Under the pieces are notes generated by a model. The model ran no database searches. It was given only the letters and a program-made list of their open reading frames with translations, and was not told where the DNA came from. This document shows positions 4,704 to 27,070 of a stretch of DNA of 33,241 nt, in pieces. The stretch is from Thermoplasmatota archaeon. GTDB lineage: Archaea; Thermoplasmatota; E2; JACPAO01; JAHFTW01. Location: contig JBFGSX010000001.1 of the NCBI GenBank assembly GCA_041566495.1, positions 1-33,241 on the forward strand, given 5' to 3'. The number at the start of each line of letters is the position of its first letter. The first letter of the stretch is position 1. The position numbers and the translations under genes were made by a program.

Positions 4704-5276
4704 TTGAAGATCCTCTGCGTGGGCAAGAACTACGCCAAGCACGCCGCGGAGATGGGCAGCAGCACGCCGACGTCCCCGATCTGGTTCTGGAAACCTGACT
4801 CGGCCATCGTCGGAGATGGCGAAGCCGTGCACCTGCCGGAGGGCATCGGCGCCGTCCATCATGAAGTGGAACTGGCCGTACGCATCGACCACCGTGGCCG
4901 CCCCGCCGAGATGACCGTGGCCGTGGACATCACTGCCCGCGACCTGCAAGCGGAGGCCAAGAAGAACGGGCACCCCTGGGCCATGGCCAAGGGATTCCAT
5001 TCCTTCTTGCCCCTCGGCCCATGGGTCCCCGCCAAGGACCTCGACGACCAACGCTTGCGCCTCAGCCTTGATGGCGAAGTCAAACAAGATGGGCACACGC
5101 GTGGGATGTCATGGGACGTCCCCACGTTGCTGGACCACGCCTCGAAATGGGTGACCCTTCGCGAGGGGGACGTGCTGTTGACGGGCACCCCCGAGGGCGT
5201 CGGCCCCATGCTGGCGGGCCAGACCATGGTCGCGGAGCTCGTGGGGCACGTCCGCTTGACCAACCCCATCGTCTAG
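4704..5276 (+). CDS. fumarylacetoacetate hydrolase (FAH) family protein
   Basis: (M/L)KILCVGKNYAKHAAEMG....PIWFWKP..A......V.LP......HHEVELAV and GDVLLTGTPEGVGP are hallmark FAH-fold motifs. TTG at 4704 lies 5 nt after the exonuclease stop. The upstream part of track ORF 4479 is out-of-frame overlap with that gene. Confidence 0.85.
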   Translation: MKILCVGKNYAKHAAEMGSSTPTSPIWFWKPDSAIVGDGEAVHLPEGIGAVHHEVELAVRIDHRGRPAEMTVAVDITARDLQAEAKKNGHPWAMAKGFHSFLPLGPWVPAKDLDDQRLRLSLDGEVKQDGHTRGMSWDVPTLLDHASKWVTLREGDVLLTGTPEGVGPMLAGQTMVAELVGHVRLTNPIV

Positions 5277-7303
5277 GCGATGCCCAGCCCTTGGGTGGCT
5301 TGTTGGCCTCCCGGGGTGAGCCGCATACGGACCGAGCGTCCATCCCGTTGTGCAGCGACCAAGCCCGCGTCCTGCAAGCGCTTGAGGTGGTAGGTGGCCG
5401 TGGCAGCAGACAGACCTGCGGCACTTGCCAGGTCCTTGGAGCGAGCACCGGGGGTTTGCCGGAGGGCCGCGAGGATATGCCGGGCACCCTCGGAGCGCAG
5501 CAAAGGCCCCGCGTCGAGGACCGCCCGACACGTGGCGGCGGGGAAGTAGCACGTGTAGCCGGGGCTTTGGCGGGCCCTGATGAGCCCTGCTTGCTGGAGC
5601 TTGTGCAGGTGGTGCCGGATGCGCCCCGGGTTGGCGCCAAGGCGTTCACACAGGGCGCGGAAGTGGAGGCCCGGATCGGCTTCGAGGGCATCCATGATGG
5701 TGGCCCGGGTCGGGTCTTCTAGGAGCTCGTCAGGGCGGAGGCGACTGAACAACGCTAGGCCGGCAGCTTTGAGCGTGGGCCAACCAAGGTAGGCGAGGCC
5801 CAGCAAGGACGCGGCGATGCCCATGCGGGCACCATGGCCTGTGCTTGGCAGGGCCCAGCCCGTGGCGGCATAGCCCGCGACCGTGAGGGGTTCAGCCGCG
5901 GCGGGGGCCGGCATGCTCTGTACAGGTCCGGTGGAGCGCCGTTCGAAGCGTTGGGTCTCTCCTTGACCGTCCAGGGTGATGAGGGTGGCCTCTTCGCCAT
6001 GTGCCAGATCCACGACGGGCAAGCCCGCAGGCCCCCAGCGCAGGTTCTGGGTATGACCCCCGGCGACGCGCACGACGGGGTCTCCGTTCCGGTCGGTGAG
6101 GATCTCGAAGCTCCAGGCATTGGCGCCGGCGTGGCGTTCCTGCGCCGTGACGTGTTGGCCCCAGCGTTCCCATACGGAGGCGACCGTGGGCACGTGGCCC
6201 ACGAGGTGCCTGGGGGGCGCCGCGGGGGCGAGACTGGACGTCTCGATGGGTTGCACGCGGACACCACTCAAGGGCAGGACCTCCCCTTCGTTCTGACTGA
6301 TGCGGACGCTGTATCCTTCTCGCCCATCACTAAGGTGGAGCTCCCAGGAGTGCCTGGTCTCGGAGCCATCGGCTTGCTGCTGGTAGTCGGCGCGGAAGAC
6401 GTACCCCTGGGGGTGGTAGCGGAGCCAGTCCCGCAGTCCTGCGAACGTGTTGTGGCGCACTGCTTCGTCGAACGCTTGGCTGAGCCGGAACGGGTGGTCG
6501 ATGCCCGTGTCTAGCAGACCCCATGTCTCCATCGGGGCCCTGTGGATGGGTGGCGCCACGATGGCGCTGGGTTGGGGTGCTTGGCCTGCTTGGCCATGCT
6601 GGAAGCCGGTGAGGTGGTAGGTGGCCGTGCGGGGTTCCTGAGCGGGGCCCAGGGCGGTGAACTTGTACGTGACGGGGACCGGGATATCGGCGGCGTACCA
6701 CCAATCCATGGTGATGCTGCCCGGCGCGTGGATGTGCTTCAGTCGTAGCCCTTGCTCCACGACCTGCGAGGCCACCAGGGGCCCCGGGGGTAGGCTCACG
6801 CGCATGCCGGGCAGGGTGCACCCGGGCGTGGTGTGAGACGAGCCCGGGCCAGAGAGCAGGCAGTCGCGGTGGGCATCGTATGTGACAGACCGGTGCATCT
6901 CGGCCAGCACGCCTCGGACCTGGTGCTTGACCTGCTCCGTGGCGACGACGTCACCCTCAAGCCACCAGCGGCGCAGTTCTGAGTCGTACCATGTGTCCCC
7001 GGGGTGCAGGGTCGTGCCTTCAGAGTGCCATAGCACCGGATGGGCTTGGATGAGGCGTCCGTCGGAGCCACGGACACCTTCAGGGGGCAGCACCTGGAAC
7101 CGGGGGCCTTGGCTTGGCTCGCCCTCGGTGTGATGCTCGTAGCGCCAGTCCCCTTCGTACGTGACACTGTACGCCGCCACGTCTCCGCCCTGTAGTGCCC
7201 GGGTCTGCACCGACACCTCTTCGATGGGTACGGCCAGGCTGGTGCCGACCAGCAGGATCATCGCGCCCACGGAGACCAGCAGTGCATGCACGACTCGCCG
7301 CAT
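5273..7303 (-). CDS. paralog 1: single-pass membrane protein with large extracytoplasmic domain and C-terminal cytoplasmic tandem winged-helix (ArsR-like) module
   Basis: N-terminal hydrophobic signal/anchor (ALLVSVGAMILLVGTSLA), then about 460 aa non-hydrophobic. TM is MGIAASLLGLAYLGWPTLKAAGLALF (about 5738-5833). The tail (5276-5737) has two wHTH units: DPTRATIMDALEADPGLHFRALCERLGANPGRIRHHLHKLQQAGLI and ARHILAALRQTPGARSKDLASAAGLSAATATYHLKRLQDAGLV. Confidence 0.85.
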   Translation of the reverse strand: MRRVVHALLVSVGAMILLVGTSLAVPIEEVSVQTRALQGGDVAAYSVTYEGDWRYEHHTEGEPSQGPRFQVLPPEGVRGSDGRLIQAHPVLWHSEGTTLHPGDTWYDSELRRWWLEGDVVATEQVKHQVRGVLAEMHRSVTYDAHRDCLLSGPGSSHTTPGCTLPGMRVSLPPGPLVASQVVEQGLRLKHIHAPGSITMDWWYAADIPVPVTYKFTALGPAQEPRTATYHLTGFQHGQAGQAPQPSAIVAPPIHRAPMETWGLLDTGIDHPFRLSQAFDEAVRHNTFAGLRDWLRYHPQGYVFRADYQQQADGSETRHSWELHLSDGREGYSVRISQNEGEVLPLSGVRVQPIETSSLAPAAPPRHLVGHVPTVASVWERWGQHVTAQERHAGANAWSFEILTDRNGDPVVRVAGGHTQNLRWGPAGLPVVDLAHGEEATLITLDGQGETQRFERRSTGPVQSMPAPAAAEPLTVAGYAATGWALPSTGHGARMGIAASLLGLAYLGWPTLKAAGLALFSRLRPDELLEDPTRATIMDALEADPGLHFRALCERLGANPGRIRHHLHKLQQAGLIRARQSPGYTCYFPAATCRAVLDAGPLLRSEGARHILAALRQTPGARSKDLASAAGLSAATATYHLKRLQDAGLVAAQRDGRSVRMRLTPGGQQATQGLGIA

Positions 7304-7321
7304 CAGTGGTTCAGCCGACTC

Positions 7322-7357
7322 AGCGCTATTTAGCAGCGCTAGCCAAGTCGTCGAAAC
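7322..7357 (-). promoter_or_regulatory. promoter of paralog 1: TATA box CTAAATAG (7326-7333) flanked by two AGCGCT palindromes, plus upstream TTCGA box (7351-7355)
   Basis: Only A/T-rich octamer in the 55-bp gap. The C of CTA lies 30 nt upstream of the ATG (7303). TTCGA starts exactly 22 nt upstream of CTA, the same offset as in paralogs 2 and 3. AGCGCT at 7322-7327 and 7335-7340 brackets the TATA box. Confidence 0.5.
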
Positions 7358-7358
7358 C

Positions 7359-9503
7359 TCAGGCCGTCAGGAAGACCCGCCGCCCCACCCGTTCGGCACG
7401 GACGGCGCCCGCTCCTTGCAGTCGCTTCACGTGGTATGCGACGGTGGCAGGACTGAGCCCAAGCCGCTCTGCGACGGCCTTTCCTGTGACGCCTGGCTCC
7501 TTGCGGATCGACGCCAAGACCGCCTGCGCCCCCTTGGAGCGCAGCACCGGAGCGGCCTCCATGCTGTTGCGATCGATGCTCTTCAAGAAGAGGCAAGTGT
7601 AGCCTTCGGTGCTGCGTTTGGTCAGCAGATCATTGCGCAGCAAGTGGTCGATGTGATGGCGCAGGGTACCATTGGCCAAGCCGGTGACGCGACGGAGCTC
7701 GTTGAAGTGGATGCCCGGCTGACCGGCCACCGCATCGACGATCATCTGCCGCGTCGGGTGTTCGAGGAGCTTGGGCTTCTGCAGCCGACTGAACAACGCC
7801 AATGGCGCCGCTTTCAGGGTCGGCCAGAACGCATACAGCAATCCGGCAAGCACGCTGAAGGCACCGATACCAGCCGCCACACCGGCACTGAGCCAGGAAG
7901 CCCCCGCGGGGGTGTCGTCCAAGGGTGGGGCTGTGCTGTCCGCGGCCACCGCATCAGGGACCACGAGACCGGCCCCGCCGAAATCCATCCGAGTGTAGCC
8001 GACGACGTCGAGGCCACTGGCGTCCAGGTAGTCGATGATGGCATCCAAGCCGGTCTCACCGGCCGCGAAGTTCTCGGTGGTGTAGGCCTGCGTGTGCCTT
8101 TCTCCAGCGGTGACCACGTAGCGCGCATCAGAGCATCCCCTGTCGTTGCCCAAGCAGGTCAATCTGTGGCCCCACGAGTTCAGTTCTCCCTGCCCGCCAT
8201 AGTCGATCCAGCGCTGTGCGACGGCCTCGACGGTGGGCGCGGCACGGGGTAGCTGTGATTTGCTGGGCACGTAGGTGCCGCTCCAGCGCACCCAGGGTTC
8301 GACGCTGACCGTGTACTCGGCGACAGCCTCGCGTAGAGCAGCCGGCCAGTCCCGCGCCGCGACGGGCCTCTCCTGGGTCACTTCGACCTGCAACGCTGAA
8401 GGGCCATCGGTGACCGTGAAGGCCCATTCGGTGACGTCGTAATCTGCGGTCGTCCGCAGACTCCGCTCGGAAGCCAGGACGAAGGCGTCGGGGCGTTCCA
8501 TGAAGCGCTGCAGAGAGGCATCCGCCAGGGCGCGGGTCCACGCGGCTTGACCGTCGAAATCGGCTTCGACGGCACCCATGGAGGGGCCCCATGGCTGGAT
8601 GCTCGCCTGTCGCATGGGTGGCATCGGCGCTGCCCGCTGGGGGTCTGGCAAGGGCCGGTCGCCACGGGCGAAGCCCGAAAGGTCGAGGCGGGCGAGCCTG
8701 CCGTCCTCGTGGATTTGTTCCACCCTCAAAGGGACCGGGAGCCCAGGCACATACCAGTGGTGTTGCTCCCCGATCACGACGTGCATCGCCGCCACGCCGG
8801 CAACCTGCTGGACGCCCATGACCTGGACTCGGCGTCCTTCCTCAGCCACGTCCGTGCTGAGCCCATAGCGGAACGAGGAGGCCATGTTGAGGCAGGAATT
8901 GCTGAGGGGGAACGACGTGCCGACTACGAGTTGGCTGCCTGCAAAGACGCGCCCGGCGACGCAGTCGTCCCTGAAGGAGCCGTATTGCTGCCAGTCATAG
9001 GCGATGGATAGGCCTTCTTGGAGCTGGATCCGGGCAGGTTCTTCACCGATCCAACTCGGCGCGCCTCCCCATACTCCCGACGCACCATAGGACAAGTCTT
9101 CATCACCCGCAAAACGCCGGTACTCTTGCCCGTCGACAAGGTCCCACGTGTCGCTGAACAGATCGAAGTCCCACTCCGTCTTGACGACCTGCAGGACCGC
9201 CGCCTCGAGCAACGCACCACGCTCGTCGAAGACCTGCTCTTGCTGCCACGAGAAGCGCATGTAGGTCCAAGGCGTCCGCCAATCGGGTTCACTGTCGCTG
9301 ATCCCTTGGTAGCCTGATTGCCACGGCCCAGTGAGGGTGATCTTGTAGGCGCCACGGTCGCCGATGCGCGGCTCGGCCACAGTCATCGACGCAGCGCGTT
9401 CGTCGCCCGTGGACGCCATGCCGGTGCCAAGGCCGACGCTCACCAAGAGCATGATGAGAAGGGCGATCGGAAGCCGGCCGACAGGAAACCGCATCGAGGC
9501 CAT
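7359..9503 (-). CDS. paralog 2: single-pass membrane protein with large extracytoplasmic domain and C-terminal tandem winged-helix module
   Basis: Same architecture as paralog 1. Signal/anchor is LPIALLIMLLVSVGLG and TM is LSAGVAAGIGAFSVLAGLLYAFWPTLKAAPLALFSRL. The tail (7362-7781) has HPTRQMIVDAVAGQPGIHFNELRRVTGLANGTLRHHIDHLLRNDLL and AQAVLASIRKEPGVTGKAVAERLGLSPATVAYHVKRLQGAGAV. Confidence 0.85.
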   Translation of the reverse strand: MASMRFPVGRLPIALLIMLLVSVGLGTGMASTGDERAASMTVAEPRIGDRGAYKITLTGPWQSGYQGISDSEPDWRTPWTYMRFSWQQEQVFDERGALLEAAVLQVVKTEWDFDLFSDTWDLVDGQEYRRFAGDEDLSYGASGVWGGAPSWIGEEPARIQLQEGLSIAYDWQQYGSFRDDCVAGRVFAGSQLVVGTSFPLSNSCLNMASSFRYGLSTDVAEEGRRVQVMGVQQVAGVAAMHVVIGEQHHWYVPGLPVPLRVEQIHEDGRLARLDLSGFARGDRPLPDPQRAAPMPPMRQASIQPWGPSMGAVEADFDGQAAWTRALADASLQRFMERPDAFVLASERSLRTTADYDVTEWAFTVTDGPSALQVEVTQERPVAARDWPAALREAVAEYTVSVEPWVRWSGTYVPSKSQLPRAAPTVEAVAQRWIDYGGQGELNSWGHRLTCLGNDRGCSDARYVVTAGERHTQAYTTENFAAGETGLDAIIDYLDASGLDVVGYTRMDFGGAGLVVPDAVAADSTAPPLDDTPAGASWLSAGVAAGIGAFSVLAGLLYAFWPTLKAAPLALFSRLQKPKLLEHPTRQMIVDAVAGQPGIHFNELRRVTGLANGTLRHHIDHLLRNDLLTKRSTEGYTCLFLKSIDRNSMEAAPVLRSKGAQAVLASIRKEPGVTGKAVAERLGLSPATVAYHVKRLQGAGAVRAERVGRRVFLTA

Positions 9504-9525
9504 ACATCCCTGACCCCTAATGAGG

Positions 9526-9586
9526 GTTATAGGACGCCTGGAGCGACCTTCGAATCCTCGAAGAAGAGGGTAGAGTGCGTGTCGAA
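9526..9586 (-). promoter_or_regulatory. promoter of paralog 2: TATA box CCTATAACC (9525-9533) plus three TCGAA boxes (9550-9554, 9558-9562, 9582-9586)
   Basis: CTA lies 29 nt upstream of the ATG (9503). The proximal TTCGA lies 22 nt upstream of CTA. The first and third boxes (both TCGAATC on the plus strand) are 32 nt apart. Confidence 0.5.
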
Positions 9587-9604
9587 TCGTGGTAGGAGCC
9601 CGCT

Positions 9605-11005
9605 TCAGTGCTGGGTCTGCTTGCGGGGTTCGAGCGCGGCGTCCACTTCTTCCTTGCTGAGGCCAGACATCTCGTAGGCCAGGTCGCGGACCGTGCGGCC
9701 GGTCTTGTAGGAGGTCTTGGCGATCGTGGCGGCCTTGTCATACCCGATGAGCGGGTTGAGGGCGGTGGCCATGCTCATGGACTGCTCCACGTAACTCTCC
9801 GCCTTCTCCTTGTTCGCGGTGGTGCCGGCCAGGCAGTTGTCCACGAAGACGGTGCTGATGTTGCTCAGCAAGCGAATGGATTCCAGCATGTTGTGGGCCA
9901 TCATGGGGAGCATGACGTTGAGGTCGAGTTGGCCCCATTGGCCACCGATGCGGACGGCGGTGTTGTTGCCGGTGACGTGGGCGCCCACTTGGACGACGGC
10001 TTCGCAGATGACCGGGTTGACCTTGCCGGGCATGATGCTGCTGCCGGGTTGGATAGCAGGGAGTTGCAGTTCACCTAGGCCGCATGCAGGGCCGCTGGCC
10101 ATGAGGCGGATGTCGTTGGCGATCTTCATCAAGGACGCGGCGACCGTGTCGAGGGCACCTGCGAGGAAGACGTAGGCATCGCGAGCGGCTTGGGCTTCGA
10201 AGTGGTTCTCGGCTTCCTTGAATTCGAGGTTGGTGGCTTGGTAGAGGTACTCGGCGACTTTGGCGCCGAATTCAGGGTGGGCGTTGAGGCCCGTGCCGAG
10301 GGCACTGCCACCTTGGGCGAGTTCCAGGAGACCAGGCATGGCGGATTCGATGCGCTCGATGCCAAGTTGGATCTGACGGGCGTAGCCACTGAATTCTTGG
10401 CCCAGGCGGATCGGCACCGCGTCCATGAGGTGGGTGCGGCCGATCTTGACCACATCGTCGAACTCGGTGGCCTTCTCCGTCAGGCAGTCGCGCAGGTACT
10501 GCAAGGCGGGGATGAGGGTGTACTTGAGTTCCTGGGCGGCGGCCACGTGCATGGTGGTGGGGATGATGTCGTTGCTGCTCTGGCCACGGTTGACGTCATC
10601 GTTGGGGTGGACGTTCTCGCCGAGGATGCCGCTGGCGATGTTGGCCACGACCTCGTTGGCGTTCATGTTGGTGGAGGTGCCGCTGCCGGTCTGGAAGACG
10701 TCGACGGGGAACTGCTCCCCGTGTTCGCCTTCGAAGATGGAAAACGCGGCTTCCGCGATGGCATCGGCCTTGGCCTCAGGCAGTTCGCCCAGGTCCTTGT
10801 TGGCCAGGGCGCAGGCCCACTTGACGAGGCCCACGGCCTTGACGAACTCGGCGGGCATGCCGTGGCCGGCGACGGGGAAGTTGAGGATCGCCCTCTGGGT
10901 GCTCGCGGCCCACTTGGCGTCGATCGGGACCTCCATTTCACCCATGGAGTCGGCTTCAATGCGGCTGTCGGGTCCGGCCATGGTCCCGAGGGGGGCGTCG
11001 CTCAT
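9605..11005 (-). CDS. fumC: class II fumarate hydratase
   Basis: 466 aa with the fumarate-lyase signature GSSIMPGKVNP, plus SSNDIIPTTMHV and TGSGTSTNMNANEV. CGTAAATC box (11028-11035) lies about 26 nt upstream of the ATG. Confidence 0.95.
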   Translation of the reverse strand: MSDAPLGTMAGPDSRIEADSMGEMEVPIDAKWAASTQRAILNFPVAGHGMPAEFVKAVGLVKWACALANKDLGELPEAKADAIAEAAFSIFEGEHGEQFPVDVFQTGSGTSTNMNANEVVANIASGILGENVHPNDDVNRGQSSNDIIPTTMHVAAAQELKYTLIPALQYLRDCLTEKATEFDDVVKIGRTHLMDAVPIRLGQEFSGYARQIQLGIERIESAMPGLLELAQGGSALGTGLNAHPEFGAKVAEYLYQATNLEFKEAENHFEAQAARDAYVFLAGALDTVAASLMKIANDIRLMASGPACGLGELQLPAIQPGSSIMPGKVNPVICEAVVQVGAHVTGNNTAVRIGGQWGQLDLNVMLPMMAHNMLESIRLLSNISTVFVDNCLAGTTANKEKAESYVEQSMSMATALNPLIGYDKAATIAKTSYKTGRTVRDLAYEMSGLSKEEVDAALEPRKQTQH

Positions 11006-11027
11006 CGGGTGCGCGAGCCTGGCCTGG

Positions 11028-11035
11028 GATTTACG
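11028..11035 (-). promoter_or_regulatory. TATA-like box of fumC (CGTAAATC in gene orientation)
   Basis: Isolated A/T-rich element about 26 nt upstream of the fumC ATG (11005) in otherwise GC-rich DNA. Confidence 0.4.
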
Positions 11036-11074
11036 GGTGACGGCGCTTCATTTCAACATCATCCCAGGAAGACC

Positions 11075-11082
11075 TGTAAAGG
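11075..11082 (+). promoter_or_regulatory. TATA-like box of lipoprotein gene 11103-12179 (TGTAAAGG)
   Basis: About 25 nt upstream of ATG 11103. Confidence 0.35.
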
Positions 11083-11102
11083 AGAAGCCTGGTGGGCCGT
11101 GC

Positions 11103-12179
11103 ATGCGTTGGCTCGTCGTGGCCCTCATCGTCTTGGCTGGCTGTGCCGAGGCTCCCGTTCCGGTCCTCGAAGGACCCGACCCCACCGTGCCCATCTATGG
11201 AGGCATCAACCCCGAGTCCTTGCACTTGCTAGGCTCCGACAACAACGAGACCGGAGACGCTCGGGTCCTAGTGGGGCGCTGTGCCAGCCAGCAGAACGTC
11301 TTCGCATACACGTTCCCTGCCCGCTTGGACAATGCATCCGCAAGTAGGGTCGTGCTCACATTCTCCCATGACGTCCCCAACGCCACATCGTTCCTCATCG
11401 CCTCTTTTGCGGATTCCCCTGGAGGCCTGATTCCGACCCGCTTGGTGGCTGGAGGCGCCCACGCATCGGAGGCCCCCCCTTCCATGGGCCAAGTAGAGTG
11501 GTATGAGGCGATGCCAAGGTCGTTCACCATACCCGTTGGACCGGATGGCATGGTGCGCATCGCCATCGCATGCGAAGGCGAGGGTGTCGTCAATTACGTC
11601 ATCGACGAGCCCACGAACCCGGAGCGGCCGGACTACCTGGAGCCCGTGGTGGCGTCCGGTTTCGACGCGTTCCTTGCCGACGGTTACTCCCTCCTCTACG
11701 TTCCGCTTCCTCCAAACACGCGCATCACGGGACCCGCGTGGACGTTGGTGGGAGACGTCATCGTCGACTACTCTCAGACAGCCCCCAATGGTGTTCGGGT
11801 CGGCGAGACCCACATTCAATGGGGTTCGTCCAGGGCGGGCTGGACCACGACGATGTGCGGCCACGATGGTTGGGCAGAGACCGGCACATGGGCGTACGAA
11901 GCAGACTTCGGGCACGGCCCCGAAAGCGCGGGGGGGCTCATCGTTGACAGCATCGCGACGCTGGGATTGAGCCAGATGTTGTTGTTCGGAGACATGGTGC
12001 TCTCCCACTCGGGCAGCGGCGGGGAGGCTCCATGGTTCCGGTTCTCCGTGGAGCACCAAGCGTCGTCGGAGGTAGCGTGGTCCACGTGGTGCGTGGGGAC
12101 CCACTTGGGCGCGCCGCTCGACGTCTTGTTCGCCGCCGCAGGGGCACGTGAGTGGGACATGCCGGAACCGTTCCTTTAG
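11103..12179 (+). CDS. hypothetical lipoprotein
   Basis: MRWLVVALIVLAGCAE is a signal peptide with lipobox. No family recognised. ATG at 11103 lies about 25 nt after TGTAAAGG (11075-11082). The upstream part of track ORF 10425 is antisense to fumC. Confidence 0.7.
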   Translation: MRWLVVALIVLAGCAEAPVPVLEGPDPTVPIYGGINPESLHLLGSDNNETGDARVLVGRCASQQNVFAYTFPARLDNASASRVVLTFSHDVPNATSFLIASFADSPGGLIPTRLVAGGAHASEAPPSMGQVEWYEAMPRSFTIPVGPDGMVRIAIACEGEGVVNYVIDEPTNPERPDYLEPVVASGFDAFLADGYSLLYVPLPPNTRITGPAWTLVGDVIVDYSQTAPNGVRVGETHIQWGSSRAGWTTTMCGHDGWAETGTWAYEADFGHGPESAGGLIVDSIATLGLSQMLLFGDMVLSHSGSGGEAPWFRFSVEHQASSEVAWSTWCVGTHLGAPLDVLFAAAGAREWDMPEPFL

Positions 12180-14257
12180 GCGGCAGCCGGTCCAAGTTGC
12201 AGGATGGTGCCGTTGCCAGCCTTCTGGACCCGCACGACCCCGGCGTCGCTGAGGCGCTTGAGGTGGTAGTGCATGGTGCTGGGACTGATGCCGATCTCAT
12301 TGCGGACATCCACCGCCAGTGAGCCAGGGTGCGCTCGGATGTGCGCGATGATCTGTTGGGCGGCGGCGCTCTTGAGGACCGGGGCCGCTGCCAGAACGTG
12401 GCGGTCGGTCGCCTTGGGGAAGTAGCAGGTGTATCCTGCACTTCTGTGGACGGTGAGGAGCCCGCCTTCGTGCAACTTGTGAAGGTGATGCTCCACGGCA
12501 CCTTGTCCGATGCCGAGGCTGCGCACCAGTGCTTGCTGGTGGATGCCAGGTTCTGCTTCGATGTGGTCCATGAGACGGCGGCGTTGAGGGTTCTCCAGCA
12601 ACTCCGGGGTCTTGATGCGGCTGAACAGCCCCATGAAGGAGGTCTTCAGAAGGGGGTGGAGGAAGTACACCAGGCCGGCGATGAGAGCCCCCGCGCCGGC
12701 CACGGCGACCTCACGAGCGCTCAGCATCGGTCCAGGGTCGAACCGGGATAGGCTCATGGCGGAGGCTTGGACAGGGGGCGCCGGAGGGGTGCTGCCTTCG
12801 GCGTACCAATCCTGAGTGTGTTCCACGTAACGGGTCAGGATGAAGGAACCTGCACGGGTGTCCCATTGGACATGACTGGCCTGGTATTGATCGGTGTAAT
12901 CGTTGACCACGTAAGCCACGGTCCTGTGGTCCCGCGTGTATGCGTCGTGCCCGGCGGTCACTTGCACGATGGCTTCATCGCAGGTCTCCCCGCAGCGGAT
13001 CCAGGTCCGGACGGCATTTCCGGGAGTGTGTTGGTAGTCTGGGCCGCGGTGTTTCTCCCAGATGGCCAGCATAGAGGCCAAGGTGGGCATGCGCGCCGGC
13101 GCGGCCTGGGGCTTCGGGTGGGAGTAGCCGCGGGCATCCTCGATGCCGCGGTCGCTGAAGTCCCAAGTACCTGGGCGGTCGAGGGGCGTGACCAGGTCGT
13201 TGTCTTGGGTGATGAAGCGCGCGTGGAGGCTGATCCATTCGTCACCGTCGGTCACGTCGAAGTTCCAGTAGTGCCAGACGTCCCCTCGGTCCACATCGTG
13301 GAAGTGTCCGGAACTCAGGCCCCGGACGTAGGCATCCGGGTGCGTGGCCAAGTAGTCCCGTAGAGTCTCGTAGGACGGATCATCCAACGCAGCTTGCCAT
13401 GCGTCTTGCGGGGACACAGGCAGGTCTACTCCGGTGCTGTCGATACCCCAGGCCGGCATCGGTGCTGTTCGGAGGTGCGGGACACCCATGGCGCGGGGCG
13501 TGTCTGGTTGGAGCCGCACGTCTGCATTGCCCCGGGCATAGGCCTCCAGTGTCCAGACCGCTTCCGTGGCGCCCGCTTCGACGATGCGCACGGGGTATGG
13601 GATGCCACTCTGATACCAGAACGTCATGGCAAGACCGCCGCGGTGGGCCTCCACCACCATCGTGTTTGTCTCTTCGATGTGTCCGGCGGTGACGTAGTGG
13701 CCGATGGCATCCATGGCACGGACCGCACCCCAGCAGGAGACTCCCGGGAACGTCTGCTTGGCCACGGCGACGGTCGTGCCTTGCCATGGTGCGACGAGTC
13801 CGCAAGGGATGGCGCCGACGTGGGGTTCGAAGCGGAGGTAACGCTGCTGCATGTCCATTTGGGTGCCGTCTTGGACGGTGGTAGACGATACCAGGGCAGC
13901 AGACGCAACAGCGTCCAGGCTTCCAGGGGCCAGGTACCAGACCAGGTCAGTGGTGTGCTTGCCGTTGGCTGTGTTCTCGACCACGTGGACGGCGTTGTAC
14001 CATGCGCGAGTGCCATCGGCCAGCAGGACCTGTTCGTCCGGTAGCCAGGACAAGTTGTACTGGCCCATGCGGCTCGGGGAGCCACCCGTGATGGTGTAGC
14101 GGGCTTCGTCGCCGGCCTTCGGGGCGGCGAACGAGAACGAGCCCTCGGGCTCGGCCGCCTCGGCGTTGCTGAGCCCCACGGCGCCGATGGTGCCACCGGC
14201 AAGGAGGAACACAGTCAGGGTGAAGGCAAGGTGACGGGGTCGGGTCAACAAGTGCAT
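12176..14257 (-). CDS. paralog 3: single-pass membrane protein with large extracytoplasmic domain and C-terminal tandem winged-helix module
   Basis: Same architecture as paralogs 1 and 2. Anchor is LAFTLTVFLLAGGTIGAVGL and TM is VAVAGAGALIAGLVYFLHPLLKTSFMGLFSRI. The tail (12179-12613) has NPQRRRLMDHIEAEPGIHQQALVRSLGIGQGAVEHHLHKLHEGGLL and AQQIIAHIRAHPGSLAVDVRNEIGISPSTMHYHLKRLSDAGVV. ATG at 14257 is preferred to GTG at 14272 because the TATA box starts only 13 nt from 14272. Confidence 0.85.
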   Translation of the reverse strand: MHLLTRPRHLAFTLTVFLLAGGTIGAVGLSNAEAAEPEGSFSFAAPKAGDEARYTITGGSPSRMGQYNLSWLPDEQVLLADGTRAWYNAVHVVENTANGKHTTDLVWYLAPGSLDAVASAALVSSTTVQDGTQMDMQQRYLRFEPHVGAIPCGLVAPWQGTTVAVAKQTFPGVSCWGAVRAMDAIGHYVTAGHIEETNTMVVEAHRGGLAMTFWYQSGIPYPVRIVEAGATEAVWTLEAYARGNADVRLQPDTPRAMGVPHLRTAPMPAWGIDSTGVDLPVSPQDAWQAALDDPSYETLRDYLATHPDAYVRGLSSGHFHDVDRGDVWHYWNFDVTDGDEWISLHARFITQDNDLVTPLDRPGTWDFSDRGIEDARGYSHPKPQAAPARMPTLASMLAIWEKHRGPDYQHTPGNAVRTWIRCGETCDEAIVQVTAGHDAYTRDHRTVAYVVNDYTDQYQASHVQWDTRAGSFILTRYVEHTQDWYAEGSTPPAPPVQASAMSLSRFDPGPMLSAREVAVAGAGALIAGLVYFLHPLLKTSFMGLFSRIKTPELLENPQRRRLMDHIEAEPGIHQQALVRSLGIGQGAVEHHLHKLHEGGLLTVHRSAGYTCYFPKATDRHVLAAAPVLKSAAAQQIIAHIRAHPGSLAVDVRNEIGISPSTMHYHLKRLSDAGVVRVQKAGNGTILQLGPAAA

Positions 14258-14277
14258 GGCCAGGACTCCCACGCAGC

Positions 14278-14373
14278 CAATATAGGGCGCGCGGGGCGAT
14301 CATCGAAAACCCGCCCACCCCCCTGGGCGGATCTTCGAAAACCGAGGCGCCCATCGGACCAAGGCTCGAAAAG
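14278..14373 (-). promoter_or_regulatory. promoter of paralog 3: TATA box CCTATATTG (14278-14286) plus three TCGAAAA(C/G) boxes (14303-14310, 14335-14342, 14366-14373)
   Basis: CTA lies 28 nt upstream of ATG 14257. The proximal TTCGA lies 22 nt upstream of CTA. Boxes are spaced 32 and 31 nt. The first two sit in near-identical 14-mers, GATC(A/T)TCGAAAACC. Confidence 0.5.
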
Positions 14374-14385
14374 CCTTGCTGGGAC

Positions 14386-14844
14386 CTACTTCACGGCCAA
14401 TGCCGCACGGATCGCTTCGTGGATGCGCTTGGCGCGGGCCATTCGTTCAGCGTCCCGTTCGGTCTCGGCGACGACGGGCGGGACCGCGGTGGGCTTGCCT
14501 GATTTGTCCAAGGCGACGAAGGTGACGTGGGCACTGCCGACGTGGCGGACATTGCCCGTCGGGGGGTCTTCGGCTTCGACCCGGACCCCGACGATCATGC
14601 TGGTGCGTCCCGTGTGGCGGACGGTGGCGTGGACATGCAGGATGTCCCCGACGAAGACCGGTTCTTTGAACGACATCCGTTCGAAGCTGGCGGTGACGAC
14701 CTTGGGTTGGCGGCAATGGCGCCAGGCAGCCACCGCAGCGGCCTCGTCGATGTACTTCAGGATCGCACCACCGTGGACGTTGCCGTAGACGTTGGCCTCA
14801 TCTGGCTGCACGAGCCGACTGAGGGTGGTCGCGGACTTGGACAT
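14386..14844 (-). CDS. acyl-CoA thioesterase (hotdog fold, YciA/Acot-like)
   Basis: LVQPDEANVYGNVHGGAILKYIDEAAAVAA ... VVTASFERMSFKEPVFVGDILHVHATV ... VGSAHVTFVALD is the typical acyl-CoA hydrolase hotdog pattern. Start uncertain (ATG at 14844, ATG at 14859 or GTG at 14871). GGAAGG lies before 14844. Confidence 0.85.
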   Translation of the reverse strand: MSKSATTLSRLVQPDEANVYGNVHGGAILKYIDEAAAVAAWRHCRQPKVVTASFERMSFKEPVFVGDILHVHATVRHTGRTSMIVGVRVEAEDPPTGNVRHVGSAHVTFVALDKSGKPTAVPPVVAETERDAERMARAKRIHEAIRAALAVK

Positions 14845-14912
14845 CGGGATGCCTTCCATGTGGACTCGCACGCCGCCCTTGGCCTTGAACGTAGGCCCTG
14901 GTCCCAGGGGCT

Positions 14913-18086: not shown

Positions 18087-18466
18087 GCGTCGGCGAGGTT
18101 CTCGAGGGCTTCCCAAGCGAGGTCGACTTCGTCGACGCCGATGTAGATGGAGCCCCCGTCTTGGCCCTTGGCGGCACCGAAGGAGACGTGGATGTTGACC
18201 TTCTTGTCGCCGAGGGCCTTGGCGACCTGGGCCAGTTCGCCGGGCTCGTTCGGGAGTTCGATCTCAATGACCTCTTCCTGGGTGAACGTGATGCCTGCGG
18301 CCTTGAGGGCGCTACCGGTGGCTTCGTCGTCGCCGGTGACGATGCGCAGACCGCCAGGGCCGGCGCTGAATGCGTCGATGTTGATGCCCGCCTTGTGGAG
18401 GGCTTGGGCGACATCACCCAGGGTGCCCGGGCGGTCTTCGACATCCAGCGTGTACAGCATGGCCAT
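18083..18466 (-). CDS. tandem ACT-domain protein
   Basis: MAMLYTLDVEDRPGTLGDVAQALHKAGINIDAF and a second unit IEIELPNEPGELAQVAKALGDKKVNIHVSF are two ACT-type beta-alpha-beta-beta-alpha-beta units. Confidence 0.75.
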   Translation of the reverse strand: MAMLYTLDVEDRPGTLGDVAQALHKAGINIDAFSAGPGGLRIVTGDDEATGSALKAAGITFTQEEVIEIELPNEPGELAQVAKALGDKKVNIHVSFGAAKGQDGGSIYIGVDEVDLAWEALENLADA

Positions 18467-19842: not shown

Positions 19843-19850
19843 CTATAAAT
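19843..19850 (+). promoter_or_regulatory. TATA box of icd (CTATAAAT)
   Basis: Best TATA-like octamer in the window. It lies 20-29 nt before TTG 19870 and ATG 19879. It may also serve the divergent GGCT-DUF72-ACT unit. Confidence 0.55.
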
Positions 19851-19878: not shown

Positions 19879-21165
19879 ATGGCCTGGAATTTCACTGTCC
19901 CCGAAGACGGCGCCGAGATCAAGGTGCAAGAAGACGGCACCCTCGTCGTCCCGAACAACCCTGTTATCCCTTTCATCGAAGGCGACGGCACCGGCCCCGA
20001 CATCTGGGCGGCCAGCCAGCGCGTCCTCGATGCCGCTGTGGCCATGGCCTACGGCGGCGACCGCAAGATCGCCTGGATGGAAGTCCTTGCTGGCGAGAAG
20101 GCGTTCAACGAGACCGGCGAGTGGCTCCCGGAAGCCACCCTCGAAGGCGTCCGCCAATACAAGGTCGCCATCAAGGGCCCCCTCACGACGCCCGTCGGCG
20201 GCGGTATCCGCAGCCTGAACGTCGCTCTGCGGCAGATCCTCGACCTGTACGTCTGCCTGCGCCCCGTGAAGTACTACGCTGGTGTCCCGACGCCGGTCCA
20301 CGGCCCCGAGCGCCACGACTGGGTCATCTTCCGTGAGAACAGCGAAGACATCTACGCAGGTGTCGAGTTCGCTGCCGGGACGCCCGAGAACAAGAAGCTC
20401 ATGACGTTCCTCCGCGACGAAATGGGCGTCTCCAAGATCCGCTTCCCCGAGACCTCCGGCCTCGGCATCAAGCCCATCAGCAAGGAAGGCACGGACCGCC
20501 TCGTGCGCGCCGCCATCCAGTACGCCATCGAGCACGACCGTGACAGCGTCACCCTCGTGCACAAGGGCAACATCATGAAGTTCACCGAGGGTGGCTTCCG
20601 CGACTGGGGTTACCAGCTTGCCAAGGAAGAGTTCGGCGCGGTCGAACTCGACGGCGGCCCCTGGTGCACCTTCAAGAACCCGAACACGGGCAAGACGATC
20701 ACGGTCAAGGACGTCATCGCTGACGCCATGCTCCAGCAGATCCTGACCCGCCCGAGCGAATACGGTGTCGTCGCCACGATGAACCTGAACGGCGACTACC
20801 TCAGTGACGCCCTGGCTGCCTGCGTGGGCGGCATCGGCATCGCCCCCGGCGCCAACATCAACTACGTGACCGGCCACGCCATCTTCGAGGCGACCCACGG
20901 CACCGCGCCCAAGTACGCGGGTCTTGACAAGGTCAACCCTGGCTCGGTCATCCTGAGCGGCGTCATGATGCTGCAGCACCTCGGCTGGAACGAAGCCGCT
21001 GACTTGATCCAGAAGGGTCTGGCCGAAGCCATCACGCAGAAGCGCGTCACGTACGACTTCGAGCGCATGATGGACGGCGCCACCCTCCTGAAGTGCAGCG
21101 AGTTCGGCGACGCGATCATCGAGAACATGGGCGGCGTCGAAGCGGCCCAGCCCAACGCCGCTTAG
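19879..21165 (+). CDS. icd: NADP-dependent isocitrate dehydrogenase
   Basis: [34 protein letters not shown] and the signature [13 protein letters not shown] are present. Length and order match prokaryotic homodimeric ICDH. TTG at 19870 is an alternative start. CTATAAAT box at 19843-19850. Confidence 0.95.
21129..21161 (+). repeat. direct repeat copy 1 (last 11 codons of icd)
   Basis: GGGCGGCGTCGAAGCGGCCCAGCCCAACGCCGC is followed by T-TAG. An identical 33-mer recurs at 21222-21254. Confidence 0.9.
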
Positions 21166-21221
21166 GCGTGGCGAAGGCCGCAAGGCGCTGACTTCGTGCA
21201 GCCCTGCCAAGGGCAGCACTG

Positions 21222-21254
21222 GGGCGGCGTCGAAGCGGCCCAGCCCAACGCCGC
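21222..21254 (+). repeat. direct repeat copy 2 (displaced duplicate of the icd 3' end, in frame, followed by TAG)
   Basis: Identical 33-mer 93 nt (31 codons) downstream of copy 1. The next codon is GCG instead of GCT (both Ala), then TAG. Confidence 0.9.
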
Positions 21255-21268
21255 GTAGGCTTCTCGAG

Positions 21269-21319
21269 CCCTCCTTCTCCCCTTTCCCCCTCCTTTTGTT
21301 TCCGAGGGGCCATTTTTTG
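21269..21319 (+). terminator. polypyrimidine / oligo-T termination region downstream of icd
   Basis: A 29-nt pure C/T run (21269-21297) ending in TTTT, then TTT, then T6 (21314-21319) inside the inverted repeat CCGAGG..CCTCGG (21302-21329). Archaeal terminators are oligo-T tracts. Confidence 0.5.
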
Positions 21320-21376
21320 ATCTCCTCGGCGCGGACCGACCCAACGTTAAAGTCGGCCCCTAAGCATTCCGAGCTT

Positions 21377-23147: not shown

Positions 23148-24692
23148 TCAGCGGCGCGTCGGGGCCTTGAAGCGCCAGTCTTCAGCCGGGCGAGGCATGA
23201 GGGGGCGACCGCTGAGGCGGACGCGACCTAGGGTCTCGCAGAGTTGCTCGATGCGGTCGGCGGGGACTTCGACGACGCACATCTTCTCGAGGATGTCGAT
23301 GCGTCCGACGTCTTCGCCGCGCAAGCCGCCGGCGTTGGTGAGGACACCGACGATGGCTCCGGGGCTGACGTTGTCCATCTTGCCGACCTTGAGTGCGAGA
23401 GCACTGGGGCTATTGGAGACGGGGGCTTGGACCTCGGGGACCGGGATCATGAGAGCCTCGATGGCGCGCATGGCGATGTCCTCTGCGTCCATGCCGTCGG
23501 CGATGGCCTGCTTGAATGCTGCGATGGCGCCCTCGCTGGGTTCCTTGTCGCCAAGGGAGGCGATGACGCGGTTGCTGCGGATCGTGGCCAGTTCGGCTTC
23601 GTCGGGGAGGACGTATTGCTCGAGTTTGCCCACCGCGCGGCGCACGGCACCGAGGCGGTTGACCTTGCCAGGTCCGATGAAGACGATGCTGGCACCACTG
23701 CGACCGGCACGACCAGTGCGGCCGATGCGGTGGATGTAGGTGTCCACGTCGCCGGCCGGTTCATCGTGCAGGACGATGTCGATCTCATTGACGTCAAGGC
23801 CACGGGCAGCCACGTCGGTGGCGACCAGCAATTCGGCCTTGCCTTCGCGGAAGCGCTTCATGACACCGTCGCGCTGGGGTTGGCCCATGCCACCGTGCAA
23901 GGCTTCTGCCTTCAGGTGTTGTAGCTCGTTGACGAGTTCTTCGACGCGGGCGCGGGTGCGGGCGAAGAGCAGCGTGGCGCGAGGGTTCTCGGCTTCGATG
24001 ATCTTCTGCACGGCGTCTGCACGGTCACGGCCGGCGACGATGGCGTAGCCTTGGCGGATGTCCGGGGCAGCACCGGCACCCATGCGGATGGTGACGGGGT
24101 CGACGAGGGTCTTCTTGGCTAGCTTCTCGATCTGTGGGGCCAGGGTGGCGGTGAACAGGACCGTCTGGCGTTCCTTGGGAAGCGCGGCGACGATCTGGTC
24201 GAGTTCATCCGCGAAGCCCATGCTGAGCATCTCGTCGGCTTCGTCGAGCACGAACATGGACATCTCGCGCAGGTCGAGGGTGCCGCGACCCAAGTGGTCG
24301 ATGACACGACCAGGGGTGGCGACGAGGATGGCGTTGGGGTGGCGTTGCAGGGCCCGGGCCTGGTCACCGAAAGGAGCGCCGCCGATGAGACAGATGACGT
24401 CCACGGGGCTGCCCTTGCCGATGGCCTGCAGTTCCTGTTGGACCTGCTTGGCCAGTTCGCGCGTCGGGGCGAGAACAAGGCCGCGGCGGCCTTCACGGGA
24501 CGCCTCGATGAGGGGTACGCCGAAGGCGGCGGTCTTGCCGGTACCGGTCTTGGCCTGACCGATCAGGTCACGGCCTTCGAGCAGTGCGGGGATGGCTTCT
24601 CCCTGGATGGGAGTGGTTTCGGTGAAACCCATGGCCTCGAGGGCCGCTAGGGTCTTCTCATTGAGCGGAAGGTCCGCGAATCGGATTTTCAT
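23148..24692 (-). CDS. deaD: DEAD-box ATP-dependent RNA helicase, DeaD/CsdA-type with C-terminal DbpA-like RNA-binding domain
   Basis: Q motif TPIQ, motif I AKTGTGKT, II DEAD, III SAT, VI HRIGRTGRAG. The C-terminal LKVGKMDNVSPGAIVGVLTNAGGLRGEDVGRIDILEKMCVVEVP resembles the DbpA/DeaD RRM-like domain. The start ATG overlaps the upstream helicase stop (ATGA at 24689-24692). Confidence 0.95.
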   Translation of the reverse strand: MKIRFADLPLNEKTLAALEAMGFTETTPIQGEAIPALLEGRDLIGQAKTGTGKTAAFGVPLIEASREGRRGLVLAPTRELAKQVQQELQAIGKGSPVDVICLIGGAPFGDQARALQRHPNAILVATPGRVIDHLGRGTLDLREMSMFVLDEADEMLSMGFADELDQIVAALPKERQTVLFTATLAPQIEKLAKKTLVDPVTIRMGAGAAPDIRQGYAIVAGRDRADAVQKIIEAENPRATLLFARTRARVEELVNELQHLKAEALHGGMGQPQRDGVMKRFREGKAELLVATDVAARGLDVNEIDIVLHDEPAGDVDTYIHRIGRTGRAGRSGASIVFIGPGKVNRLGAVRRAVGKLEQYVLPDEAELATIRSNRVIASLGDKEPSEGAIAAFKQAIADGMDAEDIAMRAIEALMIPVPEVQAPVSNSPSALALKVGKMDNVSPGAIVGVLTNAGGLRGEDVGRIDILEKMCVVEVPADRIEQLCETLGRVRLSGRPLMPRPAEDWRFKAPTRR

Positions 24693-26008
24693 GCGCGCCT
24701 CTGGGTGCGTTGGCCGGTACGCGGGGCACGGGAGCCCCCGCCTTGGGTCCGGCGTTGTTGGTTGCCGCCGGCGGAGCCTGCGGGCTTGTAGCGGCGGCGC
24801 GGGTTGCTTTGTGCGCCTTGGTTGCCACTTTGTTTCTGTTGGACGACGGGTTGGTTCGGGGCGACCTTGGGGTCGGGCCCGTCAGGTGCCGCCGATTCGT
24901 CCATCTCCACGTCCATGTGGGGGACCTGCTTGCCGATGTGGTGTTGGATCGCCTTGAAGTCCTTGACCTCGTCCGATTGGACAAAGGTGAAGGCGCGTCC
25001 TGCGGCGCCGTTGCGGGCCGTGCGGCCCACGCGGTGCACGTAGGAGTCTTCGTCGGGCAGGTCGAAGTTGACCACATGCGTCACGCCCTGGACATCGAGG
25101 CCGCGAGCGGCGACATCGGTGGCGACCAGGAGACGGGCGGAGCCGTCACGGAAGGCGGTCATGGCGCGTTCGCGCTGACCTTGGGTCATGTTGCCTTGGA
25201 GGGCGACGGAGGACCAGCCCTTGCTCACGAGTTTGATCGCGAGGCGCTTGGCCAGGTGCTTGGTACGGGTGAAGACCACGGCACGGGCAGGTTGCTCGTC
25301 GTGGAGCAAGTGCAGCAAGGCGCTGGTCTTCAGGGGTTTCTCGACGCGGGTGTGGAACTGTTCCGCTTGGGGGACAGTCGCTTCGCCGTCATCGACGGCG
25401 ATGTGCACGGCGTCGTTGGTGAACTCGTTGACGAGTTTCTGGACCTCTGCCGGGAACGTGGCGCTGAAGAGCGCCGTCTGGCGTTGGCGAGGCACCATGC
25501 GTTCCAGTTTGCGCATGTCGCGCACGAAGCCCATGTCGAGCATGCGGTCGGCTTCATCCAGGACCCAGACCTTGACGTTGGACAGGTCCGCGGCGCCGCG
25601 CTCGATCAGGTCGAGGAGACGACCGGGGCATGCCACGATGATCTTGGCGCCTTTCTTGTCCAGGTCGGACAGTTGTTTGCCGAAGCCGACGCCGCCATAG
25701 ACGGAGACGATGCTGAGGGAGCTGGCCTTGGAGAGGTCGGTCAGGACCTCTGCCACTTGTAGGGCCAGTTCTCGGGTCGGTAGCAGGATCAGGCCGACGA
25801 TGCCGCTGTGCTCGTCGCGCAGGGCGTCGACCATAGGGATGCCGAAGGCAGCCGTCTTTCCGGTTCCAGTCCTTGCTTGACCGACCACGTCCCGGCCTTT
25901 CAGCATCGGAGGGATGGCTTGTGCTTGGATGGGCGTGGGCGTCTCGTAGCCCATGGCGACGATAGCATCCAATGTGCCATCGTTGATAGTAAACTCTTCA
26001 AATTTCAT
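24689..26008 (-). CDS. rhlE: DEAD-box ATP-dependent RNA helicase, RhlE-type with basic low-complexity tail
   Basis: TPIQ, ARTGTGKT, DEAD, SAT and HRVGRTARNG are present. The C-terminal tail is rich in R, G, Q and N (QSGNQGAQSNPRRRYKPAGSAGGNQQRRTQGGGSRAPRTGQRTQRRA). Confidence 0.95.
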   Translation of the reverse strand: MKFEEFTINDGTLDAIVAMGYETPTPIQAQAIPPMLKGRDVVGQARTGTGKTAAFGIPMVDALRDEHSGIVGLILLPTRELALQVAEVLTDLSKASSLSIVSVYGGVGFGKQLSDLDKKGAKIIVACPGRLLDLIERGAADLSNVKVWVLDEADRMLDMGFVRDMRKLERMVPRQRQTALFSATFPAEVQKLVNEFTNDAVHIAVDDGEATVPQAEQFHTRVEKPLKTSALLHLLHDEQPARAVVFTRTKHLAKRLAIKLVSKGWSSVALQGNMTQGQRERAMTAFRDGSARLLVATDVAARGLDVQGVTHVVNFDLPDEDSYVHRVGRTARNGAAGRAFTFVQSDEVKDFKAIQHHIGKQVPHMDVEMDESAAPDGPDPKVAPNQPVVQQKQSGNQGAQSNPRRRYKPAGSAGGNQQRRTQGGGSRAPRTGQRTQRRA

Positions 26009-27039: not shown

Positions 27040-27070
27040 CCTTTTTTCCCCTCCCCCCTCTTTTCTCCTT
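27040..27070 (+). terminator. polypyrimidine / oligo-T termination region downstream of the heme-oxygenase-like gene
   Basis: A 31-nt uninterrupted C/T run containing T6 (27042-27047) and T4 (27061-27064), starting 21 nt after the stop codon. Confidence 0.5.

Follow-up and report, generated by a model that had tools for sequence, protein, structure and literature searches.

Upstream of the third of three paralogous genes for membrane-anchored winged-helix proteins in an archaeal contig lie three phased copies of a TTCGA-containing box, and the same motif is found at the same position before both sister genes and before their relatives in other genomes. This recurrence makes it very probable that the boxes are a genuine regulatory site. 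We read them as the paralog-3 version of an upstream promoter element that is specific to this protein family and would be bound by a winged-helix factor, plausibly the tails of the encoded proteins themselves, and we assign this reading a probability of about 0.5. That a protein binds the boxes, which protein this would be, and whether it would activate or repress are points that we infer from sequence comparison.

The paralog cluster and its promoters

The window, by which we mean the whole stretch of DNA analyzed here, is a 33,241-nt archaeal contig with a GC content of 65%. Its relatives are labelled Thermoplasmatota archaeon MAGs, and the record of the source organism consists of metagenome-assembled genomes only. 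Three of its genes, here P1, P2, and P3, encode proteins of 676-714 aa that are about 30% identical to one another. Each begins with a membrane anchor at the N-terminus, continues with a large ectodomain and a further TM helix, and ends in two winged-helix domains at the C-terminus (PF24266 HTH_HVO_0163_N plus HTH_24/HTH_20). In P3, the ectodomain comprises about 470 aa, the TM helix residues 514-532, and the cytoplasmic tandem winged-helix tail residues 557-688. The gap upstream of P3 measures 128 nt (14258-14385), from its ATG to the stop codon (14386) of a 4HBT thioesterase gene. The genes and promoter features discussed below are as follows, with distances from the ATG given as negative numbers:

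5273-7303, minus strand: P1 gene, wHTH paralog
7347-7358, minus strand: P1 box GGTTTCGACGAC, with TTCGA at 7355, 22 nt before CTAAATA (7333-7327)
7359-9503, minus strand: P2 gene, wHTH paralog
9547-9562, minus strand: P2 proximal boxes TTCGAGGATTCGAAGG, with TTCGA at 9554, 22 nt before CTATAAC (9532-9526)
9579-9589, minus strand: P2 distal box CGATTCGACAC, 32 nt upstream of the proximal TTCGA
12176-14257, minus strand: P3 gene, wHTH paralog of 693 aa, ATG at 14257
14279-14285, minus strand: P3 TATA box CTATATT, which starts 28 nt before the ATG and is separated from it by 21 nt
14286-14297, minus strand: GC-rich block GCCCCGCGCGCC, which separates the proximal box from the TATA box and occupies the BRE position
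14298-14311, minus strand: proximal P3 box GGTTTTCGATGATC, TTCGA at 14307-14303, about -54 to -41
14330-14343, minus strand: middle P3 box GGTTTTCGAAGATC, TTCGA at 14339-14335, about -86 to -73
14363-14374, minus strand: distal P3 box GCTTTTCGAGCC, TTCGA at 14370-14366, about -117 to -106
14386-14859, minus strand: 4HBT thioesterase gene, upstream of P3 in the same orientation

Read on the forward strand, the P3 gap contains the sequence TCGAAAA(C/G) three times, as TCGAAAAC at 14303-14310 and 14335-14342 and as TCGAAAAG at 14366-14373. An initial sequence-only reading had reported three copies at 14303, 14335, and 14366 with spacings of 32 and 31 nt in a gap of 128 nt, and these coordinates are exact. 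Written in the direction of the gene, the boxes are GCTTTTCGAGCC, GGTTTTCGAAGATC, and GGTTTTCGATGATC from distal to proximal, with steps of 31 nt from the distal to the middle box and 32 nt from the middle to the proximal one. An unguided repeat search recovered the three copies as a direct repeat spaced by 32 and 31 nt, as well as a 19-nt pair (GGGGCGATCATCGAAAACC and GGGCGGATCTTCGAAAACC). The proximal TTCGA starts 22 nt before the CTA of the TATA box, and 12 nt separate the end of the proximal box from the TATA box. By their sequence positions, all three boxes are upstream of the presumptive BRE and overlap neither the TATA box nor the predicted start site.

The TATA boxes of the three paralogs (CTATATT for P3, CTATAAC for P2, and CTAAATA for P1) start 28-30 nt before the ATG, and those of the relatives fall in the same range. 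Since standard archaeal promoter geometry would then place the transcription start at or beside the ATG, this spacing fits leaderless mRNAs from the promoters of this family. In the P2 promoter, a second TTCGA at 9562 overlaps the proximal box, and the P1 box begins 1 nt past the P2 stop codon.

Some further features of the P3 and P2 upstream regions were observed. Between the TATA box and the ATG, there are conserved blocks, TGGGAGTCCT in P3 (14262-14271) and CTCAWTAGGGGTC in P2 (9512-9524), which are kept in the closest relative while adjacent bases vary; these blocks might serve as a second operator or as a signal in the initiator region. The middle and proximal P3 boxes also form a 15-nt inverted repeat with 87% complementarity (14303-14317 and 14324-14338), the sole inverted repeat of the gap, running through the spacer CGCCCA-GGGGGG-TGGGCG, which is found in the genome of the window only and is absent in the closest relative. 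Small overlapping ORFs in the P3 gap were judged spurious because orthologous gaps differ by indels of 1-2 nt. At the other end of P3, a 358-aa ORF (11103-12179, plus strand) without a Pfam match converges on the gene and overlaps its stop by 4 nt, and a gene of 356-358 aa lies in the same place on three related contigs (L001, L004, and L005).

Motif specificity and conservation across genomes

Beyond the three copies in the P3 gap, TCGAAAAS has no match on either strand of the whole 33,241-nt window. Shuffled windows had a mean of 0.92 matches, and 6 of 100 reached three anywhere in the window, an expectation that covers the whole window and not three copies within one 128-nt gap. The combination of motif and offset is similarly restricted. 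The window has TTCGA-N17-CTAWA at three places, 14307, 9554, and 7355, and nowhere else; these minus-strand matches are the three paralog promoters, so that the 22-nt offset claimed for all three of them is upheld; in the closest relative, the pattern is again confined to the three orthologous promoters. The window has four YTAWAWN sites in all, three of which are the paralog promoters. With a relaxed TATA definition applied to both strands of 81.5 kb from four species-level genomes, in which the orthologous pairs of the window and the closest relative are not mutually independent, TTCGA was found at -22 in 8 of 33 TATA-like sites against 0.06 expected, and all eight were family promoters.

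The pentamer itself is common in the window, with 117 observed copies against 46 expected, since TTC-GAx is frequent in coding sequence. The argument that A/T-containing pentamers are rare in this GC-rich DNA consequently holds for intergenic DNA and fails for the window at large. Fourteen copies are intergenic when both strands are counted, and nine of these lie in the 284 nt that make up the three paralog promoters. The promoters themselves contain the seven copies that had been counted previously (14370, 14339, and 14307 in P3; 9586, 9562, and 9554 in P2; and 7355 in P1). Among the others, the copies at 18257 and 18437 are inside an unannotated ACT-domain gene, recognized by synteny with contig L005, and that at 21539 is in a probable small ORF. 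Once these gene-internal hits are removed, there remain 21230, in the icd repeat, and 31036, which are the two exceptions that the sequence-only reading had already listed when it described the motif as rare between genes.

The icd repeat is a duplication of the end of the isocitrate dehydrogenase gene (19879-21165), in which the last approximately 43 nt including the stop, together with the next 9 nt, recur 93 nt downstream (21122-21174 and 21215-21267; 53 nt, 87% identical). It is followed at 21262-21320 by a pyrimidine-rich tract with T4 and T6 runs that resembles a genuine terminator. Elsewhere in the window, two adjacent DEAD-box helicase genes (23148-26008, minus strand) overlap by 4 nt, and one of them has a DbpA RNA-binding domain.

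TTCGA is the top 5-mer of the 13 family promoters, with 18 copies against 3.2 expected, and is followed by AGGAT and ATTCG, while a control set of 37 non-family upstream regions has five scattered copies in total. Scanning the window with a PWM gave no promoter site beyond the family promoters, and outside those promoters the matches of PWM and pattern scans of all four genomes (81.5 kb) were confined to coding sequence. The motif is missing from the other window promoters, among them the strong one of icd at 19843. Matches to RGGATTCGAMG in marine and soil loci were in a coding-like context and had no TATA box.

The gene order 4HBT thioesterase, paralog, a variable gene, class II fumarase, paralog, paralog is common to four Thermoplasmatota genomes (window 5273-14871; L001; L003 6269-22235, whose region is the same as that of L008; and L007, the H32-bin033_1 genome). 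The closest of them, L001 (GCA_041581335.1), is a syntenic Thermoplasmatota contig with 4HBT, P3, a gene of unknown function, fumarase, P2, and P1, whose proteins share 58-60% identity with their window counterparts (60% for the P3 pair). Its P3 promoter has GCTTTTCGAAGC as the distal box and GGTTTTCGAGGATC as both the middle and the proximal box, spaced by 33 and 33 nt. The GC block and TATA box are as in the window and the proximal box is at the same offset; the spacers differ in sequence and length. Between the two P3 promoters, 35 of 38 box positions and 18 of 18 positions in the BRE and TATA box are identical, compared with 22 of 55 in the spacers, where there are also indels (Fisher p = 2.6e-7 for boxes versus spacers). 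The other two promoters are kept likewise. For P2, L001 has CGATTCGA, 32 nt, TTCGAGGATTCGAAGG, a spacer, and CTATAA, in which the proximal boxes are identical to those of the window and the distal box, CGATTCGAAGC, is likewise 32 nt upstream. For P1, it has TTCGACGAC, a spacer, and CTAAATA, with the box AGTTCGACGAC at the same offset.

In L003 and L007, the proteins are only 28-33% identical to those of the window and the synteny is the same. In L003, the paralogs number five and are interspersed with PIN and HepT/MNT toxin-antitoxin pairs. Paralog c of L003 is preceded by three copies of AGGATTCGAMG, the proximal TTCGA being 22 nt before TTATAC; at -22, GTCGA precedes paralog b and TTCGG paralog e. 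Paralog a of L007 has TTCGA 22 nt before TCTTATG and ATTCGC 33 nt further upstream. Conservation in ortholog promoters, which had been proposed as a check on the boxes, is seen both in the near-identity of the boxes in L001 and in the TTCGA at the same offset in L003 and L007.

Measured from the start codon, TTCGA starts at 50-52, 82-84, or 107-116 nt upstream in P1, P2, and P3 of both the window and L001 and in paralog a of L007. L003 paralog c is an exception, with starts at 43, 84, and 107 nt before a called GTG that is probably 6-9 nt too early. Spacings between boxes across promoters are 31, 32, 33, 33, 32, 32, and 33 nt. The suggestion that these are candidate operator or activator sites is well supported by the retention of the boxes relative to the spacers, the fixed offset in four genomes, the spacing of about three helical turns, and the low number of copies in the control regions.

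A GC block with the pattern GCYCCNGNCGYC occupies the BRE position in the P3- and P2-type promoters of all four genomes (14286-14297 and 9533-9544 in the window). This block contrasts with the A-rich stretch that precedes TATA-like sequences of other window genes. The motif is absent from 3 of the 13 family promoters, namely those of L003 paralog d, L003 paralog a (which has TTCGT at -25), and L007 paralog b. The last of these genes follows fumarase and has TGGGASGAATGCCCC twice (11740-11786), 30 nt apart and just upstream of CTATATG, a repeat that may represent a diverged box specificity.

Candidate binding factor and alternative explanations

The family to which the three paralogs belong is sizeable, with 334 cluster representatives at E ≤ 1e-30 in an exhaustive HMMER search (clusters at 50% identity). 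Homologue searches with P3, a family alignment, and P2 gave five distinct proteins, and a scan of genome contigs gave three loci, with L007 as the single additional genome. An AlphaFold2 model of P3 from a 60-sequence alignment has a pLDDT of 85 and places two canonical winged helices after the TM helix at 514-532. The modelled tail matches tandem-winged-helix proteins and also ArsR units, the latter at 1.7-1.9 Å rmsd, and on this model the tails are predicted to be ArsR/SmtB-like tandem winged helices. Their recognition helices are strongly conserved among 139 family representatives.

The ectodomain of the model (residues ~35-500; pLDDT mostly >85) consists of a beta-rich domain and then repeated alpha/beta modules. 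It had no credible match in the PDB, where porin hits had TM-scores of ~0.1. Four of its residues, D50, C152, C175, and W331, are invariant in 60 family members.

The consensus of the element is GG(A/T)TTCGA-N-G(A/G)(T/C), and all copies are in gene orientation. In the proposed mechanism, one fixed copy would stand just upstream of the BRE/TATA core, its TTCGA 22 nt before the TATA box and some 50 nt before the leaderless start, and extra copies would follow one and two steps of ~32 nt further upstream. For P3, this would put the TTCGA copies at about -50, -82, and -113 from the start. Because 31-33 nt is about three helical turns, all boxes would face the same side of the DNA. Such an array would provide sites for a sequence-specific winged-helix factor controlling initiation, and the shared face would allow several membrane-tethered molecules to dock on one side of the DNA. 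We put at even odds that this factor is the cytoplasmic tandem-wHTH tails of the encoded proteins, with auto- and cross-regulation among the paralogs. This identification is favored because the paralogs are the sole winged-helix genes in the window and because their recognition helices are conserved, as is the TTCGA core. Activation through recruitment of TFB/TBP is somewhat more likely than repression, since the sites are upstream of the BRE and not over the TATA box or start site; as a counterpoint, the strong consensus TATA boxes fit the repression of a strong promoter better than they fit activation.

An unlikely but substantial alternative is that the array is bound by a different trans-acting regulator encoded elsewhere, for which the family would be a regulon, and that the tails have other targets. 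All the cis evidence fits any sequence-specific factor equally, most transcription factors of the organism lie outside the 33 kb of genome at hand, and no co-variation of recognition-helix residues with box variants was detected among 13 sequences. The exclusiveness of the motif speaks against a separate regulator, since in four genomes it occurs only in promoters whose genes code for DNA-binding domains of their own. No wHTH or other HTH gene beyond P1-P3 was found in the window, nor was one linked to the cluster in L001. Autoregulation is common among ArsR/MarR-type and membrane-bound one-component regulators, and this also counts against it.

The sequence-only reading left out of account the T4C runs that the P3 boxes bring close to the thioesterase stop codon and their possible contribution to termination. 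The T4C runs, 14, 45, and 77 nt past that codon, could together with the GATC that follows them be tandem terminators or insulators of the thioesterase gene. Runs of at least four T are rare (20 on both window strands, three of which are the boxes), they are kept in L001, and the middle box reads TTTTCGAAGATC, with AGATC 3 nt after T4C. In Haloferax volcanii, intergenic termination involves a T stretch ending at C, with AGATC as a weak downstream motif (PMC7237163). We nevertheless consider it very improbable that this explains the boxes. The whole 14-mer is conserved (GG, CGA, G, and GATC) beyond the T run, and a terminator has no need of 31-33-nt phasing or of a fixed distance to the next TATA box. 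Nor can termination explain the promoters of the sister genes, since the boxes at the identical -22 in P2, P1, L003 paralog c, and L007 paralog a (GGATTCGA, GGTTTCGA, and GTGTTCGA) are without T runs, and the gap between 4HBT and the paralog in L007 has no T run at all. The clearest terminator-like tracts of the window are T6 and pyrimidine-rich (21262-21320 and 27040-27070), whereas the runs in the P3 gap are only T4C, shorter than these and than the T5C tested in Haloferax. A terminator scan of the P3 gap found nothing. A secondary, partial role in termination for the P3 variant of the box has a modest probability.

The least probable of the explanations considered is that the TTCGA which the promoters have in common at -22 was left over from a duplicated ancestral promoter, or is a structural or extended core feature read by the basal machinery of this lineage, with no dedicated regulator. 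Promoter sequence could have been passed on when the paralogs arose by duplication, and the GC block and the TATA box are also common to their promoters. At ~30% protein identity, however, unselected promoter sequence would be randomized, and the spacers are already scrambled between orthologues that are 60% identical. The motif is not a general core element, because other promoters of the window, icd included, are without it, and the extra copies at 32-nt multiples upstream would be unexpected for a core feature.

A conserved RNA hairpin in the P3 gap was also considered and rejected, since the fold of the middle and proximal boxes has z = -2.3 in the window but +0.87 in L001. An Rfam search had no match near threshold and gave noise only.

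Relation to known archaeal and bacterial regulators

As far as our literature searches show, the motif, its -22 offset, and its link to this uncharacterized family appear to be undescribed. By analogy, the P3 array would be an archaeal promoter element of the UAS or operator type, and an element of this type is to be expected. To our knowledge, very few binding sites of archaeal transcription factors are known outside model organisms. The closest analogue of the array is provided by the ArnR boxes. At the flaB (arlB) promoter of Sulfolobus acidocaldarius, ArnR and ArnR1, which are membrane-bound, paralogous HTH regulators acting as activators, need two boxes at -43 to -84, upstream of the BRE/TATA, each of which is required for binding (PMC6396743). 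The proximal and middle P3 boxes (-54 to -41 and -86 to -73) lie in this zone, and the P3 motif likewise has a TCGA core. The ArnR boxes, however, are 15-bp inverted repeats (TCGAC-N5-GTCGA), whereas those of P3 are direct repeats in the same orientation (GGWTTCGA-N-GAYC), and no GTCGA partner was found 5 nt downstream of the P3 boxes. The proteins are also set apart by their architecture. ArnR has an N-terminal HTH, a HAMP-like region, and C-terminal TM helices, an order that is reversed in P1-P3, where an ectodomain and a TM helix precede the C-terminal tandem wHTH. In addition, ArnR targets another operon, while the boxes described here front the regulators' own genes.

A second comparison is with ToxR, TcpP, and CadC, in which a TM sensor carries a fused winged-helix domain; still anchored in the membrane, this domain binds tandem direct repeats located ahead of the promoter. 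For regulators of this type, an arrangement of sites on the same face of the DNA is expected. P1-P3 resemble them in combining a TM sensor with a winged helix and in having direct-repeat sites upstream. The ToxR-type proteins are bacterial, however, with an N-terminal DNA-binding domain of the OmpR-type wHTH and sigma-70 promoters, whereas here the promoter is an archaeal BRE/TATA promoter and the tandem wHTH is ArsR-like and C-terminal.

Archaeal upstream activating sites are a further point of reference, and the Ptr2 UAS in Methanocaldococcus is one of them. Like the P3 array, such elements consist of several short motif copies upstream of the BRE/TATA; they are bound by wHTH activators and help recruit TFB/TBP. 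EarA is reported to bind a 6-bp sequence that occurs four times ahead of the Methanococcus fla promoter (as cited in PMC6396743 and PMC13286277). The EarA motif is TACATA, unlike that of P3, and both EarA and Ptr2 are soluble regulators whose targets are not their own genes. With the T5C terminators and AGATC of Haloferax volcanii, finally, the P3 gap has in common T4C runs directly past a gene in GC-rich DNA; it differs in having T4 only, in the phasing, in the fixed offset to the TATA box, and in the T-less versions of the box in the sister promoters.

If the boxes are indeed sites for the tails, a more extensive reading, which we hold only tentatively, is that P1-P3 are membrane-tethered sensor-transcription factors joined in a circuit in which they regulate themselves and one another. 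The conserved second winged helix of each tail would bind the TTCGA core, and the more variable first winged helix would read the paralog-specific flanks (GGTTTT..GATC, AGGA..AGG, and GGTT..CGAC). The 32-nt phasing would then exist because the DNA is accessible to several membrane-anchored molecules from a single side. Were this circuit real, it would add to ArnR a second class of archaeal membrane-bound transcription factor, one of inverted architecture and with a cis code readable from sequence alone. ArnR and ArnR1 are the only membrane-bound archaeal transcription factors studied biochemically (PMC6396743).

Regardless of the circuit, the motif, offset, phasing, and natural variants define a precise, conserved, and tractable cis element for a sizeable family of Thermoplasmatota sensor-regulators. 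Purified tails and short DNA probes then offer a direct way to test how a tethered archaeal factor communicates with a BRE/TATA promoter. If the boxes were instead terminators or the targets of another factor, they would still make up a well-defined promoter architecture, though one of ordinary interest.

Most of the loci recovered in a metagenome scan proved to belong to another family, of 213-218-aa marine proteins with a TM helix and a tandem wHTH, whose promoters are without TTCGA, and were set aside. This marine family (L010-L033, on contigs of 43-61% GC) has a nearly invariant promoter of its own, in which a palindrome, GTCCGAACACTGGAC, precedes CAATAAG by ~9 nt in the region about 30-55 nt before the genes.
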